Source: a virus
Lineage: Duplodnaviria > Caudoviricetes
Strand: one strand, 5' to 3'
Length of the DNA: 41,811 nucleotides
Virus record (IMG/VR): IMGVR_UViG_3300037882_001702
Coordinates: 1-41,811 of that record
The position numbers and the translations under genes are program-made. The notes beneath the pieces were generated by a model that worked only from the letters and a program-made list of their open reading frames with translations, searched no databases and was not told the origin of the DNA. Positions 2,363-33,424 of this stretch are shown here, piece after piece; the stretch's first letter is position 1, and each line of letters begins with the position of its first letter.

Positions 2363-3637
2363 ATGAATTTTGATGATGTAGAAATCCCGCTCGCTGCTTA
2401 TAGCGAAGCGCTTGAAGAACTAGATCGGCATGATAACGTTGTTCATATCCGAAAGGAGCCTCCTAAGTTTAGGACTGTGACTAATGAGGAAATTAAAAAA
2501 AGCGATCCGCTGGGTATGTCTAACGGTCGGGCAAAAGCCAAGATTGACGCAGGAAAGCCGCCTGGTCTGCCAAAAGATATGCGGTCATTCGCGCTTACAA
2601 AAGATGATCTTGACCAAATGGAACAGGCTGCCTTGGATAATGTTTGGGTTATGTTTGGCATTGCATCGCTGGGTGATATAACGGCGATATATGCCAAGCC
2701 GAACGGTGGCAAAACCCTGTTAACGCTGTGGATGTTAGTTGACGCCGTAAAATACGGGGCTATATCCGGAAAGGATATTCTTTATATCAATGCCGATGAT
2801 AATGGGAAGGGTCTACGAGAAAAGGCCGCTATTGCGCTTGAGCATGGAATTTTGATGGCGTCCCCTGGGGTACATGGATTCGTATCTAAAAATTTGTGTT
2901 ACTACCTTGATGAGCAGGTTAAAGCAGACACAGCGAAAGGCATGGTAGTCGTGCTTGATACTATGAAAAAGTTCACGGACACAATGGATAAAAAGGTATC
3001 AAGCGCTTTTATGGTATCACTTCGTAAGTTCTCAGTAGCTGGTGGAACAGTGATAATGCTCGGTCATGCAAATAAACACAGGGATGCGGACGGGAAGTTA
3101 GTTCCGGGGGGAACCTCAGACATCCCGGACGACTGTGATGCTTATTATTTTCTTGATGATTCCGGGGATAACTCTATGGGGGTTAGAAATGTGCTGTTTG
3201 AACGTATTAAATCTCGCGGGGATAACTACCAAACGATGGCTTGCAGTCATGCCGCACATGGAAATTATAGCGGATATGATGAGTTATTTGACTCGGTTAA
3301 ACGGTTAAACAGGGATGACACTGAAAAAGCTAATGGCGAAGTGCTATTGCGTGAGCGGATGGAAAAGAATAGCGAGTGCATAGCAAGCATAATCGAAGCA
3401 ATAACTGAAGGGATTAATAGTCATGTTGAGATACAAAAATATGTTTATGAAAATGCTGGCTTATCCCGGCGCGAAGTTATAAAAGTTTTAAATAGCCATG
3501 CAGGTAAAGATTGGCATAGTGGGAAACGGTGGACTATTAATCGGCAGTCAAAAGGGTTGAAAATTTACAACTTGATCCCTTGCCCAAGGGAGTGCATGTC
3601 TGAAGAATATGCCGATTTTAAGGATGGTTTTTATTAA
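2363..3637 (+). CDS. RecA-fold/AAA replicative helicase-like ATPase
   Basis: Walker A AKPNGGKT, Walker B VVVLDT, LGHANK motif; lies near the primase. Confidence 0.75.
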   Translation: MNFDDVEIPLAAYSEALEELDRHDNVVHIRKEPPKFRTVTNEEIKKSDPLGMSNGRAKAKIDAGKPPGLPKDMRSFALTKDDLDQMEQAALDNVWVMFGIASLGDITAIYAKPNGGKTLLTLWMLVDAVKYGAISGKDILYINADDNGKGLREKAAIALEHGILMASPGVHGFVSKNLCYYLDEQVKADTAKGMVVVLDTMKKFTDTMDKKVSSAFMVSLRKFSVAGGTVIMLGHANKHRDADGKLVPGGTSDIPDDCDAYYFLDDSGDNSMGVRNVLFERIKSRGDNYQTMACSHAAHGNYSGYDELFDSVKRLNRDDTEKANGEVLLRERMEKNSECIASIIEAITEGINSHVEIQKYVYENAGLSRREVIKVLNSHAGKDWHSGKRWTINRQSKGLKIYNLIPCPRECMSEEYADFKDGFY

Positions 3638-7028: not shown

Positions 7029-7445
7029 ATGGCTTTTGACCCTTTTACCGCCGGGTTTGACCTGGTTAAAACCGCACTCGATAAAATATTCCCTGATGCC
7101 GATGCTGAATTGAAAGGCAAGCTTGATCAGGCCGCAGCAGTTATCGATCATGAGTTCCAATTGACGCTCGGTCAGCTCAAAATCAATGAAACTGAAGCTG
7201 GCAGCCAAAGCTTTTTTGTCGCTGGGGCAAGACCGGCTATCATGTGGATAGGGGCGGCGACGCTGGGCTATTCTGGCATAGGCATATCACTGTTCTCGTG
7301 GATAGGGGCGTTTTTTGGCGCGCCACCACTACCCATTGTTGACCCAACAGCTGTAAACAATATTTTAATGGGCTTATTAGGTCTTGGCGGCATGAGAACC
7401 GTTGAGAAGTTGAAAGGCGTAGCTACAACAAAAATAGGAAAATAA
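7029..7445 (+). CDS. Holin, GTA 3TM-type
   Basis: EAGSQSFFVAGARPAIMW...LLGLGGMRTVEKLKGV. Confidence 0.8.
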   Translation: MAFDPFTAGFDLVKTALDKIFPDADAELKGKLDQAAAVIDHEFQLTLGQLKINETEAGSQSFFVAGARPAIMWIGAATLGYSGIGISLFSWIGAFFGAPPLPIVDPTAVNNILMGLLGLGGMRTVEKLKGVATTKIGK

Positions 7446-7509
7446 AATGAAAGCAAAAACAAATATCAAAGCCGGTCGTAAACCTAACAAGATTTATCCG
7501 TAAATCCGT

Positions 7510-7992
7510 ATGCAGATTGTTCAGCGCAAAGTTTCAGAGCTTATACCCTACGTTAATAATGCGCGGACGCATAGCGAAACGCAAGTTACTCAAATAGCAG
7601 CATCAATAAAAGAATTTGGTTTTACTAATCCAATTCTAATCGATGGAGACAACGGGGTTATTGCCGGTCATGGGCGCTTAATGGCGGCTAAAAAGCTTGG
7701 CATGGAGCAAGTGCCTACGATTGAACTATCGAACCTTACGCCCACGCAAAAGAAAGCCTATATTCTGGCGGACAACAAACTTGCTTTGAATGCGGGATGG
7801 GACGAAGAACTGCTCAAGCTGGAACTGATCGAGCTTAAAGACGCTGATTTTGATTTGAGCTTGATTGGGTTTGATGATTTTGAATTAAATGATGATGCTG
7901 TTTTTCTACCAGGTAGTGAAGATGAACAGGGAAATCTTGATATTATTGCGCCTATAATTTGCCCGGCTTGCGGTCATGAGTTCCACAAATAA
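7510..7992 (+). CDS. ParB/Srx-like N-terminal domain protein with C-terminal CPxCG knuckle
   Basis: LIPYVNNARTH...SIKEFGFTNPILID...IAGHGRL...ADNKL; CPACGHEF. Confidence 0.88.
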   Translation: MQIVQRKVSELIPYVNNARTHSETQVTQIAASIKEFGFTNPILIDGDNGVIAGHGRLMAAKKLGMEQVPTIELSNLTPTQKKAYILADNKLALNAGWDEELLKLELIELKDADFDLSLIGFDDFELNDDAVFLPGSEDEQGNLDIIAPIICPACGHEFHK

Positions 7993-8734
7993 GCCAGTAT
8001 TAAAAATAGACTGGGCAACACACCAAGCGGCAAATTATGCGGTTAAAAATTGGCATTATTCTAATGTTTTACCTGTCCCCCCATTAGTTAAAATAGGCGT
8101 ATGGGAAAATGAAATATTTATTGGAGTTGTTATATTTAGCAGGGGAGCCACTCAAAACTTATTAAAGCCATTTGGATTATTGCAAACAGAAGGTTGTGAG
8201 TTAACCAGGGTTGCTCTTACAACGCATAAAACACCCGTTTCTAGGATTATTAAATTAGCGATAATGTTTCTAATAAAAAAAAGTCCCAGCTTAAGATTAA
8301 TAGTTTCATTTGCAGACCCGTCACAAAATCATTACGGCGGAATATATCAAGCGGGTAACTGGATATATTCAGGACAATCAAATAAATCAAATGTTTATTT
8401 GGCTCCAGATGGTAAAGAATGGCATAGTAGAATGATCTCCTCATCAGGAATGACAAAAGTACAAGGAATTTATAGAAAAGTATGGAAGCCAAACGAATGT
8501 ATTGCAATAGAAAAACCAGGAAAACATCGTTATCTTATGCCTTTAGATGATGACATGAAAAAACAGATTTTAAAATTATCAAAAGATTATCCAAAGCGTA
8601 CAAAAAATCAGGCGCTTGAGTACCCCTCAAGTCTGGGCGGTGAGATTCCGACCTGTGCGCTCCAACTTTCCAAAGAGTTTTTCGGACACATAAAAGGAAA
8701 TATCGCATGTCACGCGGCGGAAGACCAAGATTAG
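7976..8734 (+). CDS. mom: Mom-family (GNAT-like) DNA adenine modification protein
   Basis: WHYS...IGVVIF...CELTRVAL...LIVSFADPSQNHYGGIYQAGNWIYSG...KHRY...YPK motifs of Mu Mom homologues. Confidence 0.82.
   Translation: MSSTNKPVLKIDWATHQAANYAVKNWHYSNVLPVPPLVKIGVWENEIFIGVVIFSRGATQNLLKPFGLLQTEGCELTRVALTTHKTPVSRIIKLAIMFLIKKSPSLRLIVSFADPSQNHYGGIYQAGNWIYSGQSNKSNVYLAPDGKEWHSRMISSSGMTKVQGIYRKVWKPNECIAIEKPGKHRYLMPLDDDMKKQILKLSKDYPKRTKNQALEYPSSLGGEIPTCALQLSKEFFGHIKGNIACHAAEDQD
8596..8664 (+). ncRNA. D-armless tRNA-Gly-like element inside the mom 3' extension
   Basis: 7-bp acceptor stem GCGTACA/TGTGCGC plus T-CCA; anticodon arm with T-ACC; T-arm GGCGG-TGAGATT-CCG(A)CC. Confidence 0.72.
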
Positions 8735-9057
8735 AGCCAACCGATGATGAGCGGAAAATGGTCGAGTCAATGAGCGGCTATGGGGTTCCATTCTCGCATA
8801 TTGCAGCGCTTATTCGGGGCGGCATTGACGAGGAAACACTAAACAAGCACTTTAAAAAAGAGCTTGTGCAAGGCAAGGCGAAAGCTAATTCAAAAGTAGG
8901 TCAAACCCTATTTCAAAAAGCTACCGGCGGCGATACGTCAGCAATGATTTGGTGGTCTAAAACACAAATGGGGTGGAAGGAGACCAGCATTACCGAGCAT
9001 CACGGCAAAGATGGCGAGTCATTAAATCCGGTCAATATCATAGTCAATGGCGTTTGA
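8707..9057 (+). CDS. Terminase small subunit
   Basis: GGRP...HFKKEL..GKAKAN...LFQKA..GD..AMIWW.K...W; directly upstream of TerL. Confidence 0.8.
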   Translation: MSRGGRPRLEPTDDERKMVESMSGYGVPFSHIAALIRGGIDEETLNKHFKKELVQGKAKANSKVGQTLFQKATGGDTSAMIWWSKTQMGWKETSITEHHGKDGESLNPVNIIVNGV

Positions 9058-10291
9058 TGCCGCAACGATCGATATACCAAAAAAGCTTATTCCTGTATTT
9101 ACTCCGCAAAGGGGGCAAGTAAGGTACAGAGCCGCATACGGCGGGCGCGGATCAGGCAAAAGTTTTAATTTTGCGCTGATGGCTGCGGTCATGGGCTACA
9201 AAGAGCCGCTAAGAATATTATGCACACGCGACCTTCAAAGTTCAATCCGCGAGTCATTTCACGAAGAAGTAAAAAGCGCTATAATGTCAATTGCCTGGCT
9301 TAATGCTAATTATGATGTCGGAGAGTCTTACATCACCGGGAAAAATGGCACTGAATTTATCTTTAAAGGCTTACGGCACAATATCAGCGCAATAAAGTCG
9401 ATGGCACAAATAGACATATGTATTGTAGAAGAAGCCGAGGACGTGCCTGAGTTTAGCTGGCGTGACTTAATCCCAACAATCCGCGCACCAAAGTCAGAAA
9501 TCTGGGTGATGTGGAACCCCCGCACAGATAGAAGCCCGGTAGACACCCGCTTTAGAAAGCATATCGATAACGATATGGTCGTTACAGCATGCCAATTCAC
9601 AGATAACCCATTTTTCCCTGAAGTTTTAGAAAAAGAGCGCCAGCGCGATCAACGAAATTATGATCCGGCTGTTTATGCGCATATTTGGGAAGGCGAATAT
9701 CTTACAATTAGCGATGCACAAGTGCTTAATGGCAAGATAAAAATAGCAGAGTTTGAGCCAGAAATGTATTGGTCAGGGCCTTATTTTGGCGCTGATTGGG
9801 GCTTTAGTACAGACCCTACAACACTGGTAAAACTTTGGATACATGATAATATCTTGTACTTAGAATATGAGGCGTATGGAGTAGGCGTTGAGATCGATCA
9901 CACCCCCGATATGTTTATGCGCGTTCCTGGAGCAAAAGAGCATATAATAAGAGCCGATAATGCACGCCCTGAAACTATTAGCTATATGCGCAGGAAAGGG
10001 TTTAATATTCGTGGAGCTGTTAAAGGAAAAGGCAGCGTCGAAGATGGCGTCATGCACTTGCGTGGATATGACAAGATCGTTATCCATCCACGATGTAGCC
10101 ACGCAATAAGTGAAAGCCGGTTATGGTCATATAAGCAAGACCGGCTAAGCGGCGATGTCCTGCCTGTTCTAATTGACGCTAATAACCATATTTGGGACGC
10201 TGCCAGGTATGCTTTAGAGCCGATAATGCACAGCGGAAGTGCAAAACATAATATAATTACACCACAGCCAACAATTTCAAGCGCCTGGTAA
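9047..10291 (+). CDS. Terminase large subunit, PBSX family
   Basis: YGGRGSGKS, IVEEA, GADWGFSTDP, NNHIWDAARYA. Confidence 0.95.
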   Translation: MAFDAATIDIPKKLIPVFTPQRGQVRYRAAYGGRGSGKSFNFALMAAVMGYKEPLRILCTRDLQSSIRESFHEEVKSAIMSIAWLNANYDVGESYITGKNGTEFIFKGLRHNISAIKSMAQIDICIVEEAEDVPEFSWRDLIPTIRAPKSEIWVMWNPRTDRSPVDTRFRKHIDNDMVVTACQFTDNPFFPEVLEKERQRDQRNYDPAVYAHIWEGEYLTISDAQVLNGKIKIAEFEPEMYWSGPYFGADWGFSTDPTTLVKLWIHDNILYLEYEAYGVGVEIDHTPDMFMRVPGAKEHIIRADNARPETISYMRRKGFNIRGAVKGKGSVEDGVMHLRGYDKIVIHPRCSHAISESRLWSYKQDRLSGDVLPVLIDANNHIWDAARYALEPIMHSGSAKHNIITPQPTISSAW

Positions 10292-14529: not shown

Positions 14530-16329
14530 ATGGCGATCACGTATGCAACTAATTTTACAACTGTAAATAATAATACAAGTATCGCTAGTGGTTCACTATC
14601 TGTTGCAATTAATGATGTTGTTTTAGTTTTAGCCGCTTCAGAAGATAATGCTAATACGGGAACACTGACTGTATCAAAAAGCGCTGGGACATCTACAGTC
14701 AGCGCTTTTACTAATATAGCAACAACTAATACCAACAACGAGTGTAAAGTAGCTGGATGGTTTTGCACTGTCACCGCGGCAGGTACGCTAACGATTAGTG
14801 TCACCCAAGGCAGCGGCACTAGTATGAACAAAAAGCTTGCAACTATTGTACATACAGGAGCATATACAACTGACCCGTGTCCAGTAGGGAATAGATTTAG
14901 CGGCATTGATACTAATGGCGATACTACTCAAGCAATAACTCCAACAAATGCCAACGGCTCTGCGCTTTGGATGATAGCTGCAGACTGGAACGCAACCAAT
15001 ACATATGCGGCGGCGGCAAATTGTACGTTAGATAGCACAACACATGTCGCTGGGGCTTACTCATCTACAGTAATCCGCCCGACTACACAGCCAAGAACTA
15101 ATGGAAGCGCATTTACTATCGGTGAATCTGATACAGGCGCAAATAACGCTTGGATAGTTTGCGAAATTGCCGCAGCAGCCGGAAGTTCAGGCGCTGTCCT
15201 CGAAGGGGGCGCTTCCGATGTAGCCACCGCCACCGCAAGCTTAACAACTAGCATAAACCTGGCAGAAGCGGCGCAAGCTTTAGCCACTGCCACGGCGGCA
15301 TTGAGTACAGGGATAAGATTATCCGGCAATGCCGTAGCAACTGGAACGGCGACGGGTGATCTTTATACGCCGCCAGCGTCTATGACGGGCGCGGCATTAG
15401 CTGTGTCTAGCGCAAGTGGAACATTATCAACACAAATTCATTTAACCGGGGTAGCAGTTGCTTTCGCAACGTCTACAGCTGCACTAACAACCGGTGCAAA
15501 ATTATCAGGAAATGCGGCAGATGTAGCGAGTGCAACCGGCGGGATAACCACTGGCATTAAATTGGCCGGGACTGCCCAGTCACAAGCAACGGCAACGACC
15601 ACATTAACCGCAATGATTATGCTAAGCGGCGCGGCATTAGCACAAGCGGCAGCAGCGGCAGGATTAACTGCATTAATAAAGCTGGCAGGGGCGGCAGTTG
15701 ATAGCTCAACCGCTACAGGCGATTTAACAGCGCCAGGTGCTCCCTCTAACTTGGCAGCAAATGCACAGTCTCAAGCACAGGCAAGCGCGTCATTAACTAT
15801 ACAGATTAGGCTTTCAGGGAGCGCATTAGCCTCTGCTTTGGCGCAAGCCAGTTTAACTGCAGGAAGTTCTTTAGAAGGCAACGCGGCCGCCAATGCGGCG
15901 GCAACCGGAAACATTGCAACAACAATCAGACTTGCCAGTGCGGCAAGCGCAAGCGCTGCAGCAACCGGAAACATGACAACGGCAATACCATTGCTGGGTA
16001 ATGCGATTGGGCTTGCCGTAGCAGACGGCAATTTAACCAGCGCTATTCAATTGTCCGGCGCTTCAGTAGCGATAGCCAGCGCAACAGGGGACTTGATGCT
16101 AGGCGCTACGTTATCAGGTAGTGCATTGGCGCAAGCGGTGTCAACCGGAAGTTTATTAACTGTTATCCAGCTTGATGCCAATTCATTCGCACAAGCAACC
16201 GCAGCGGCGGCCTTTGTGCTCGAGTACATTATGCCGACAGCAGGGCTGTCATTACAAGACATGACGCCATTATTTACAACGCGGTCGATGACGGCAAAAA
16301 GCAACATTAGGAGCGCTTATGTACATTGA
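14530..16329 (+). CDS. Fibre-like protein: globular N-domain plus about 17 Ala/Thr/Gly-rich 20-aa repeats
   Basis: Repeat L.G.A.A.A.ATG.LT..I. counted from the translation. Confidence 0.75.
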   Translation: MAITYATNFTTVNNNTSIASGSLSVAINDVVLVLAASEDNANTGTLTVSKSAGTSTVSAFTNIATTNTNNECKVAGWFCTVTAAGTLTISVTQGSGTSMNKKLATIVHTGAYTTDPCPVGNRFSGIDTNGDTTQAITPTNANGSALWMIAADWNATNTYAAAANCTLDSTTHVAGAYSSTVIRPTTQPRTNGSAFTIGESDTGANNAWIVCEIAAAAGSSGAVLEGGASDVATATASLTTSINLAEAAQALATATAALSTGIRLSGNAVATGTATGDLYTPPASMTGAALAVSSASGTLSTQIHLTGVAVAFATSTAALTTGAKLSGNAADVASATGGITTGIKLAGTAQSQATATTTLTAMIMLSGAALAQAAAAAGLTALIKLAGAAVDSSTATGDLTAPGAPSNLAANAQSQAQASASLTIQIRLSGSALASALAQASLTAGSSLEGNAAANAAATGNIATTIRLASAASASAAATGNMTTAIPLLGNAIGLAVADGNLTSAIQLSGASVAIASATGDLMLGATLSGSALAQAVSTGSLLTVIQLDANSFAQATAAAAFVLEYIMPTAGLSLQDMTPLFTTRSMTAKSNIRSAYVH

Positions 16330-32317: not shown

Positions 32318-33424
32318 ATGGCAGCCATCAAAAACGCGATTGATAATATTTTACAAGCGGCAAACCCTCGCATTGTTCAAAGCGTATTGCCGCCTAATAT
32401 CATCGTTGGCAGTGGAAATATAGGCGCAGGGACAGGAAAAAACCTGTTACCTAATGCCGGGTTTTATTTGGGGTTTGATAAGTGGAGTTATACACCTGGA
32501 TTTTCGCTTAATTTACCATCGTGGAGTCTATCCGCTATTCAATCAACGGCTTGGTTCGGTGGGAATTTTAGCGCTGGGACAGGTGATGCTTATCTTTATA
32601 TCGATGGCGCACAGCGTATTCCGGTAATAGCCGGGCAAACGATAGAAGTATCAGCTTATACTGGTGCGCATAGATGCTCCGTTGCCGTGGTTGCCGATTT
32701 TTATGACCAATCAGGCAATAATATAGGGCAAGGGCAGCAATTAGCAGGGGACAAAATAAATACAGGTGATTATGAAGGAGGGGCTGCACTAATTGGATAT
32801 AAGAGATGCTATAGCTTTCAGAAAGCGCCAGCTGGCGCTGTATCAGCCCGTTTTATATTTCAAAAATTAGCGACTAATTCCGGGCAGCCAAGTTCATACG
32901 CTTTTATAACACTGCCGTTTTTAGGTATTGCCGGAGCTAATCAAGCCGAATTATCGCCTTGGTCTGATGGCATTGGTGGACAAACCACGATTATTTCGCC
33001 ATCAAATTATTTAAGTTACATGGCGCAAGGTGCTGTATCAGGGATGGCGTATGCTAATACTTATGGCGGGACACAATCAACAATAAATACATATTTATCT
33101 TTTAATTCAGATGCACAAAATGTGTTGCTTCATCTAAGCATAACTTTAACGACTAAAGTTTCAGATTCAAATGGAGGCCGCTGCAATGTATACTACAACT
33201 TATATATAAATGGCTCATTATATCGCACCAGGAATATGGTACATTTGCCAAATATGACAACTGCTTTTGCTGCTATGGTTAATGCAACTGCAATAGTGTA
33301 TGTTCCTGCCCCCCCAGCTGGAACGGTAGAATATAGAGCTGAATTTGTCCCATTTTTTGATGGCAATGGCACGGGCGGTAAAATTGAGAATGGCTCGATA
33401 GAGATAATAGGGCTTAAAAGATGA
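32318..33424 (+). CDS. Tail fibre/host-specificity protein
   Basis: GKNLLPNAGF carbohydrate-binding-like module; position. Confidence 0.65.
   Translation: MAAIKNAIDNILQAANPRIVQSVLPPNIIVGSGNIGAGTGKNLLPNAGFYLGFDKWSYTPGFSLNLPSWSLSAIQSTAWFGGNFSAGTGDAYLYIDGAQRIPVIAGQTIEVSAYTGAHRCSVAVVADFYDQSGNNIGQGQQLAGDKINTGDYEGGAALIGYKRCYSFQKAPAGAVSARFIFQKLATNSGQPSSYAFITLPFLGIAGANQAELSPWSDGIGGQTTIISPSNYLSYMAQGAVSGMAYANTYGGTQSTINTYLSFNSDAQNVLLHLSITLTTKVSDSNGGRCNVYYNLYINGSLYRTRNMVHLPNMTTAFAAMVNATAIVYVPAPPAGTVEYRAEFVPFFDGNGTGGKIENGSIEIIGLKR

Follow-up and report, generated by a model that had tools for sequence, protein, structure and literature searches.

A tRNA-Gly-like RNA without a D arm in the 3' end of a phage mom gene, a probable glycyl donor for DNA modification

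The Mom enzyme of phage Mu is reported to move glycine from Gly-tRNA-Gly to the N6 of adenine, yielding 6-NcmdA, and to accept all three E. coli tRNA-Gly (PMC13219725); an earlier note on the DNA described here had put forward that Mom uses Gly-tRNA, which is correct for Mu Mom. The link between a tRNA-Gly and mom is already known in outline from McMurdie et al. (2011), who described a 76-bp tRNA-Gly-like 'pseudo-tRNA' within the mom homologue of 16 Dehalococcoides ssrA islands and, in the text available, proposed no function for this mom-embedded locus (PMC3146451). In staphylococci, chromosomally encoded non-proteogenic tRNA-Gly, which are cloverleaves with a UCC anticodon and weak EF-Tu determinants, are described as serving Fem transferases in peptidoglycan synthesis; their partner is a GNAT-type aminoacyl transferase, as is Mom (PMC13443448). 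EF-Tu is reported to compete with one Fem transferase, FmhB, for ordinary Gly-tRNA (PMC7826273). Other odd tRNAs of phages are described with different folds (PMC5389517).

The DNA analysed here, called the window, is the whole stretch of 41,811 nucleotides of a linear virus record (IMGVR_UViG_3300037882_001702) with a completeness estimate of 75%. Around the element described here its genes run in the order late activator, endolysin, holin, ParB-like gene, mom, terS, terL and Mu-type portal, and the 3' end of mom holds the RNA element that is the subject of this report. The features of the locus are the following.

7510..7992, + strand: ParB-like gene, overlapping the start of mom; a usual neighbour of mom, the pairing recurring in many related loci
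7976..8734, + strand: mom, 252 aa, with a GNAT-fold core up to Lys207 followed by a disordered tail that is read-through of the RNA
8596..8664, + strand: 69-nt D-arm-less tRNA-Gly-like RNA with an ACC anticodon and an encoded UCCA end, in the 3' end of mom
8596..8602, + strand: 5' strand of the acceptor stem (G1, C2, G3), pairing with 8654-8660
8603..8613, + strand: linker in place of the D arm; 8608 pairs with T-loop base 8643 (19:56-like elbow) and 8609-8611 with 8633-8635
8614..8632, + strand: anticodon arm, with a 7-bp stem including 32:38, a 5-nt loop and ACC at 8622-8624
8636..8653, + strand: T arm, with stem 8636-8640/8648-8653, a bulged A (8651) between pairs 50-64 and 51-63, and a non-TTC loop at 8641-8647
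8654..8664, + strand: 3' strand of the acceptor stem (8654-8660), discriminator U73 (8661) and CCA (8662-8664)
8707..9057, + strand: terminase small subunit gene (terS), overlapping the mom tail; terL and the Mu-type portal gene come next, a late-gene context

The Dehalococcoides locus and the element of the window have in common their position inside mom, an NCC anticodon ('DCC' in the published description), a 5-nt anticodon loop and a ParB-like neighbour. The former, on integrative islands, forms a complete 76-nt cloverleaf and falls within the first 150 bp of mom, whereas the window copy, 69 nt long and D-arm-less, occupies the 3' end of mom in a phage late region (PMC3146451). Members of 76 nt in a 5' position do occur within the wider element family and, compared by description, the two are likely one family. 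The staphylococcal tRNA-Gly share with the element GlyRS identity, the loss of G18G19 and U55, and an extra pair making the anticodon loop shorter (PMC13443448). The window element differs from them in being phage-borne, in having no D arm, an ACC anticodon, a T-stem bulge and a free wobble base, and in that its predicted acceptor is DNA; it is likened to them, by analogy, in its mode of action and is not a member of their group. The tRNA-like domain of tmRNA also has no D stem and yet is charged by a synthetase; it has alanine identity and serves on the ribosome. A chargeable tRNA body without a D stem is likewise described for mitochondrial tRNA-Ser(GCU), which has a ribosomal role and serine identity, whereas the element has a linker/variable helix and has lost decoding features (PMC9976931). 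Phage Mu has no such RNA, and the main text of Silva et al. 2026 leaves a phage-encoded donor unmentioned (PMC13219725). Against the literature found, what appears to be new is the D-arm-less architecture with its elbow, the breadth of occurrence, the antisense and tandem arrangements and the proposed role as a donor. Non-canonical tRNA-Gly of phages and CPR bacteria are said to have been sorted into groups in one study, some of the groups lacking the D stem; that study, if real, would pre-empt the structural novelty. A literature search returned no D-arm-less phage tRNA-Gly and no Mom donor RNA, a weak negative since McMurdie et al. (2011) also escaped it.

The product of mom matches the Pfam family Mom (PF25680) over residues 9-207 (E 3e-40, 138 bits for a cut-off of 27), is assigned to PHROG 1384 and aligns to Mu Mom with 96.5% probability in hhalign. 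The top Foldseek match of its predicted structure is the crystal structure of Mu Mom (8bv8, E 4e-11). The two proteins belong to one family and one fold, and both cores end in YPK; they are about 23% identical, and the window Mom is without the N-terminal extension. Equivalents of Mu H58, Y59, R111, S124, D149, Y159 and W181 are present, whereas R151, essential in Mu, and W48 have none. When the Mu-essential residues R111, S124, D149 and R151 are aligned, R78, S89 and D114 of the window match and R151 falls on S116. Examined by eye across Mom proteins, R151 and the N-terminal extension follow no pattern with respect to the presence of the RNA. The structure model has pLDDT below 50 across residues 211-252, and mean column conservation is 0.45 in the tail and 0.83 in the core. 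The ParB-like/mom order is common to phages Y8A, phiEf11, Wyborn and Phonegingi. A scan of GTDB for Mom gave one locus; in the class of that genome, 2 of 400 genomes scored over the cut-off, one of them being the centre genome itself. Elsewhere in the window, a 599-aa ORF within the head module (14530-16329) and a 368-aa ORF in the tail region (32318-33424) have no PHROG match, and the sole PHROG match of a 424-aa ORF (2363-3637) is of unknown function.

The acceptor stem, the T arm, ACC, U73, CCA and the junction with YPK all lie where the earlier note had placed them, G1 of the element being the third base of the Lys207 codon in the YPK motif. The anticodon arm that it described, with its ACC, is present too; G32 and C38, however, pair and covary, which extends the stem to 7 pairs and leaves a loop of 5 nt. 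The D arm is indeed missing; the A-rich linker in its place is not just filler, with 8609-8611 pairing to 8633-8635 and 8608 covarying with 8643, and 8606:8646 is a weaker candidate contact between linker and T loop. It had also been expected that tRNA scanners would miss the element, and neither ARAGORN on the window nor Rfam on 7400-9600 detected it; for eight relatives, Rfam called a tRNA only in the three most canonical. Model R1 scores the element at 78 bits as its only match in the window, which belongs to the R1 training set. The fold of the single sequence is modestly unusual (z −2.1; 5 of 200 shuffles fold equally well), and a descriptor of the acceptor plus UCCA finds matches in 25 of 300 simulated windows. 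What carries the case is conservation, together with covariation and linkage. In longer-context folding, the pair probability of the acceptor and T stem is 0.1 in 8560-8720, where they are out-competed, and 0.88 in 8500-8800. An internal promoter was considered and rejected: such sigma-70-like sites as the one at 8550-8579 number 5 for 4.3 expected by chance, and the upstream conservation looks codon-driven.

The element is present, at or just after YPK, in all 92 fetched loci of the window's Mom clade (11, the best 80 of 579, and 1 from the GTDB scan). A GCG...CGC acceptor lies at most 18 nt from the YPK end in each of the 92, in an anchor search that itself rewarded the GCG...CGC letters and in which Mu, phiEf11, SerPounce and PM87 score 13-16 against 20-24 for the clade. 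Among 64 distinct copies the first base of the T arm is a first codon position in 34, a second in 16 and a third in 14, so that all three frames are used; the tails of 120 homologous proteins divide 79/33/6 across the three frames, with 2 unsorted. In the 39 gap-free 69-nt copies, 96.8% of cells are paired, compared with 30-40% in slid controls, and two-sided changes occur at 17 of the 24 pairs; 22 of these 39 come from a pattern fixing the T stem and the 3' end, so that invariance there is partly circular, and the T stem still varies pairwise among 68 protein-selected copies. An unbiased covariation scan, for which the null was a home-made tree-aware shuffle and not R-scape, placed nine pairs of the acceptor and anticodon stems at E < 0.001. 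Within the acceptor, pairs 4-7 covary and pairs 1-3 are nearly invariant. The 76-nt cloverleaf form covaries as well. The use of three reading frames and the covariation of the stems reveal selection at the RNA level: the element is conserved as RNA rather than as protein. An explanation at the protein level was ruled out by the three reading frames, by the weak conservation of the tail and by its pLDDT below 50. A conserved, covarying structure beside Mom homologues, which had been chosen beforehand as the test of the earlier note, was thus found, with 92 of 92 loci, covarying stems and linkage to mom in the reverse test described below.

The G19-C56 pair makes the elbow of tRNA. At this position, linker base 13 (8608) covaries with T-loop base 56 (8643) at E ~0.03, the pair being G-C in 28 copies, U-A in 7 and A-U in 2. 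It is formed in 80 of 89 D-arm-less copies, and in 15 of the 16 of those that have no C56. The pair 8608:8643 is equivalent to the 19:56 elbow, and the L shape is likely retained. A helix between linker bases 14-16 and the variable region reads CAG/CUG or GCU/AGC and, swapped, CUG/CAG in copy 1 of phage Y8A; tested against the tree null, this linker/variable helix does not reach significance (E 0.5-0.8).

The identity set of bacterial GlyRS is reported to consist of G1-C72, C2-G71, U73, C35 and C36, while the third acceptor pair matters for GlyRS in yeast and an archaeon (PMC9976931). The window copy has the full bacterial set; of the six bacterial elements that the earlier note had listed, these five stand and the third pair is to be assigned to the enzymes of yeast and an archaeon. 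Among 68 protein-selected distinct copies, G1-C72 and C2-G71 are each found in 68, U73 in 67 and CC at 35-36 in 67, the latter counted by an anticodon placement blind to CC. The UCCA end is present in 62 of the 68, the bulged A of the T stem in 63 and a TTC T loop in 8. Position 32:38 is paired in 63 of 67 copies, and U33 occurs in 37, A34 in 32, G34 in 3 and C37 in 32 of them. A canonical tRNA has G18G19 in a D arm, a TTC T loop, a T stem of 5 bp with no break and an anticodon loop of 7 nt with a purine at 37; the window copy differs in having no D arm, a T loop starting UGA, a bulged A, a 5-nt loop and C37; the consensus triple G10-Y25:G45 (PMC9976931) has no direct counterpart in an element without a D stem. 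A tRNA-Gly(ACC) is described as otherwise universally missing (PMC8007984). The T-stem pairs 49-65 to 51-63 are reported to set EF-Tu affinity, the data in the available text being on pairs and none on bulges (PMC3239215). Judged by these sequence features, the element is built for charging, not for decoding.

Linkage to mom was analysed in a reverse test: loci were drawn with an RNA-only pattern, the element was masked and a Mom-like gene was then searched for nearby, using a Mom profile partly built from these proteins (Pfam called Mom in 18 of the 18 candidates checked). In the viral collection, an estimated 1,600 stretches match one narrow RNA pattern. The RNA-only pattern gave 120 viral loci, 80 of them with wide flanks; L153, L173, L203 and L205 were left out of the structure counts. 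Of these 80 matches, 72 adjoin a Mom-like gene, 61 lying downstream of mom and 11 upstream. All 39 D-arm-less viral matches adjoin mom, and all are 3' of it. In metagenomes, 38 of 45 matches confirmed by model R2, drawn from 80 loci, adjoin mom, against 0 of 35 chance matches, with which L484 (25.5 bits, 148 nt) was classed. Five of the 8 viral misses have at most 70 nt upstream, one is a mom-deletion relic, and L115 and L132 are unexplained. No mom was detected in the flank of the element in L132, L446 and L115. The intact elements of L132 (1455-1529) and L446 (1155-1229) come after a long ORF, glycosyltransferase-like by eye, with no adjoining mom, and a convergent GNAT gene (Acetyltransf_1) takes the place of mom in L115; these neighbours may be other glycyl-transferring partners of the element.

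Another Mom clade, whose identity to Mu Mom is 38%, yielded a match in 45 of 46 loci, 37 of them antisense. Since model R2 also scores ordinary tRNAs, 12 of these loci were read individually: the GCG acceptor, the bulged A and NCC are present in all 12, and 11 have a hairpin and a T run after the element. In Psychrobacter phage Y8A (OQ059336), which has the gene order of the window, two tandem D-arm-less copies (L548:1929-1996 and 2001-2069) lie directly after mom; both are entirely outside the CDS and unannotated. L010 and phages of Arthrobacter and Microbacterium carry a near-canonical tRNA-Gly next to mom. In locus L006 the element that adjoins an open mom is degenerate, with A73 and without CCA. 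Two mom-deletion relics carry broken elements and, being two cases, are anecdotal: in L173 (1501-1630, − strand) the N-terminus of mom is joined to the element's 3' half, in which the anticodon is TTC and C35 is lost, and in L453 (1201-1260, − strand) a 3' remnant of mom accompanies an element without anticodon arm. A Mom tree built with FastTree (midpoint root, no clade test) shows the D-arm-less form mixed with the cloverleaf form in each of the two clades, which suggests that the element has been exchanged as a module between mom genes.

The RNA is not found with every mom. With these models, 44 Mu-like loci, many of which have no 3' flank, and 80 PM87-type loci gave no element, nor did Mu, phiEf11, SerPounce and PM87 when searched as whole genomes; phiEf11 and L549, which are in or near the window's Mom clade, thus show none. 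A third query gave 28 loci: the element family is present in 4 of them, another kind of tRNA-Gly in 5 and neither in the remainder. Since any of the three host isoacceptors serves Mu Mom, there is no need for a private donor, and the RNA is to be seen as an accessory and not as a universal need.

Since the RNA has retained just the features required by GlyRS, accompanies mom in whatever orientation and has been duplicated, we consider that it is probably a dedicated trans-acting glycyl donor for Mom. This donor interpretation, put forward in the earlier note, is supported by the comparative sequence data, and charging, escape from EF-Tu and use by Mom are its predicted steps. The element would likely be excised from the late transcript, with a 5' maturation of RNase P type and 3' trimming to the encoded CCA, and host GlyRS would likely charge it with glycine. 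It would likely be kept from EF-Tu, by its T-stem bulge within the 49-51/63-65 pairs, and from the ribosome, and the 19:56-like pair together with the linker/variable helix would hold the L shape. Mom would then take glycine from the charged element to modify adenine in phage DNA. More speculatively, cleavage at G1 in this locus would produce a mom message that has no stop codon and ends at YPK, which is the end of Mu Mom itself, so that a transcript may yield either enzyme or donor. A broader proposal has, in our view, an even chance of being right: phages of several distant Mom clades would encode a widespread group of aminoacyl-carrier RNAs dedicated to DNA modification, including a D-arm-less, elbow-preserving form swapped between mom genes of about 25% identity; GlyRS would charge these RNAs, EF-Tu ignore them and Mom prefer them, and excision would silence the overlapping mom message.

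An RNA so placed might act on Mom instead of supplying it. Charged or uncharged, it could bind the toxic enzyme and hold it inactive until late, or sense glycine charging. Its linkage to mom would then be equally tight, and the acceptor end, which the authors of the Mu study suggest is mainly what Mom reads (PMC13219725), is kept in the mimic. However, an RNA that only inhibits would have no use for the synthetase signature seen in the near-invariant C35 and C36, one that is charged would serve as a substrate, and tandem duplication fits supply; we regard such a regulator as unlikely. The position of the element between mom and terS, the mom stop lying beyond it in 60 of 64 distinct clade copies, and an alternative fold that competes in one context would suit a cis element of the late mRNA, either a tRNA-like processing site or a GlyRS-bound sensor tuning mom against terminase. 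Yet the family also occurs upstream of mom (11 of the 80 viral matches) and in tandem outside the CDS, antisense copies with an apparent terminator of their own are seen at 37 loci, and processing alone would give no selection for CC in the anticodon loop. These antisense, upstream and tandem intergenic copies weaken the cis-regulatory sensor that had been offered earlier as an alternative, and a cis role is in our opinion quite improbable.

The drain of Mom on the host pool might be offset by a supplementary translational tRNA-Gly, or by a decoy for toxins or nucleases that target tRNA-Gly. The near-canonical members that adjoin mom in L010 and in the Arthrobacter and Microbacterium phages would agree with this, and the TacT toxin is reported to read U73 and G71 (PMC9976931). 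The window copy, however, has neither D arm nor TTC, and combines a 5-nt loop, ACC, C37 and a T-stem bulge, while a decoy has no need to adjoin mom, yet 39 of 39 D-arm-less cases do so; we find both functions hard to credit. The modest signal of the single sequence and the degenerate copies of L006, L173 and L453 could also be those of a decaying tRNA or integration-site remnant carried with mom, or of a by-product of protein conservation. Compensation between paired bases, seen in all stems and at the elbow, largely refutes this; the three reading frames and the lower column conservation of the tail (0.45; core 0.83) also speak against it, as does the fact that the two clearest decayed copies lie where mom is deleted, which makes it extremely unlikely.

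If the element is indeed a dedicated glycyl donor, a phage enzyme obtains Gly-tRNA against EF-Tu late in infection, with translation not drained, and dedicated non-translational tRNAs extend from cell-wall synthesis to DNA modification. The RNA would moreover mark which uncharacterised Mom-like enzymes probably use glycine, and the element offers a natural minimal, translation-silent predicted substrate of GlyRS that tRNA finders have overlooked. As Y8A is a cultured phage with copies outside the gene, direct testing is feasible.

Further arrangements were noted among the loci collected. Just upstream of a third Mom clade, in L318, L322, L324, L329 and L332 (~1030-1120, + strand), lies a different tRNA-Gly with a GCC- acceptor, no bulge and an odd anticodon loop, which is possibly an independent recruitment. 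Two tandem copies of differing subtypes are present in L489 (1161-1298). In the Arthrobacter phages L095 (2110-2183) and L097 (2098-2171), an unannotated near-canonical tRNA-Gly overlaps the end of mom, while in the Microbacterium phages L093 and L094 (2151-2225, − strand) a near-canonical tRNA-Gly is antisense and has a 7:66 mismatch. Finally, L055, L086, L129 and L145 each contain two Mom-family genes from different clades.
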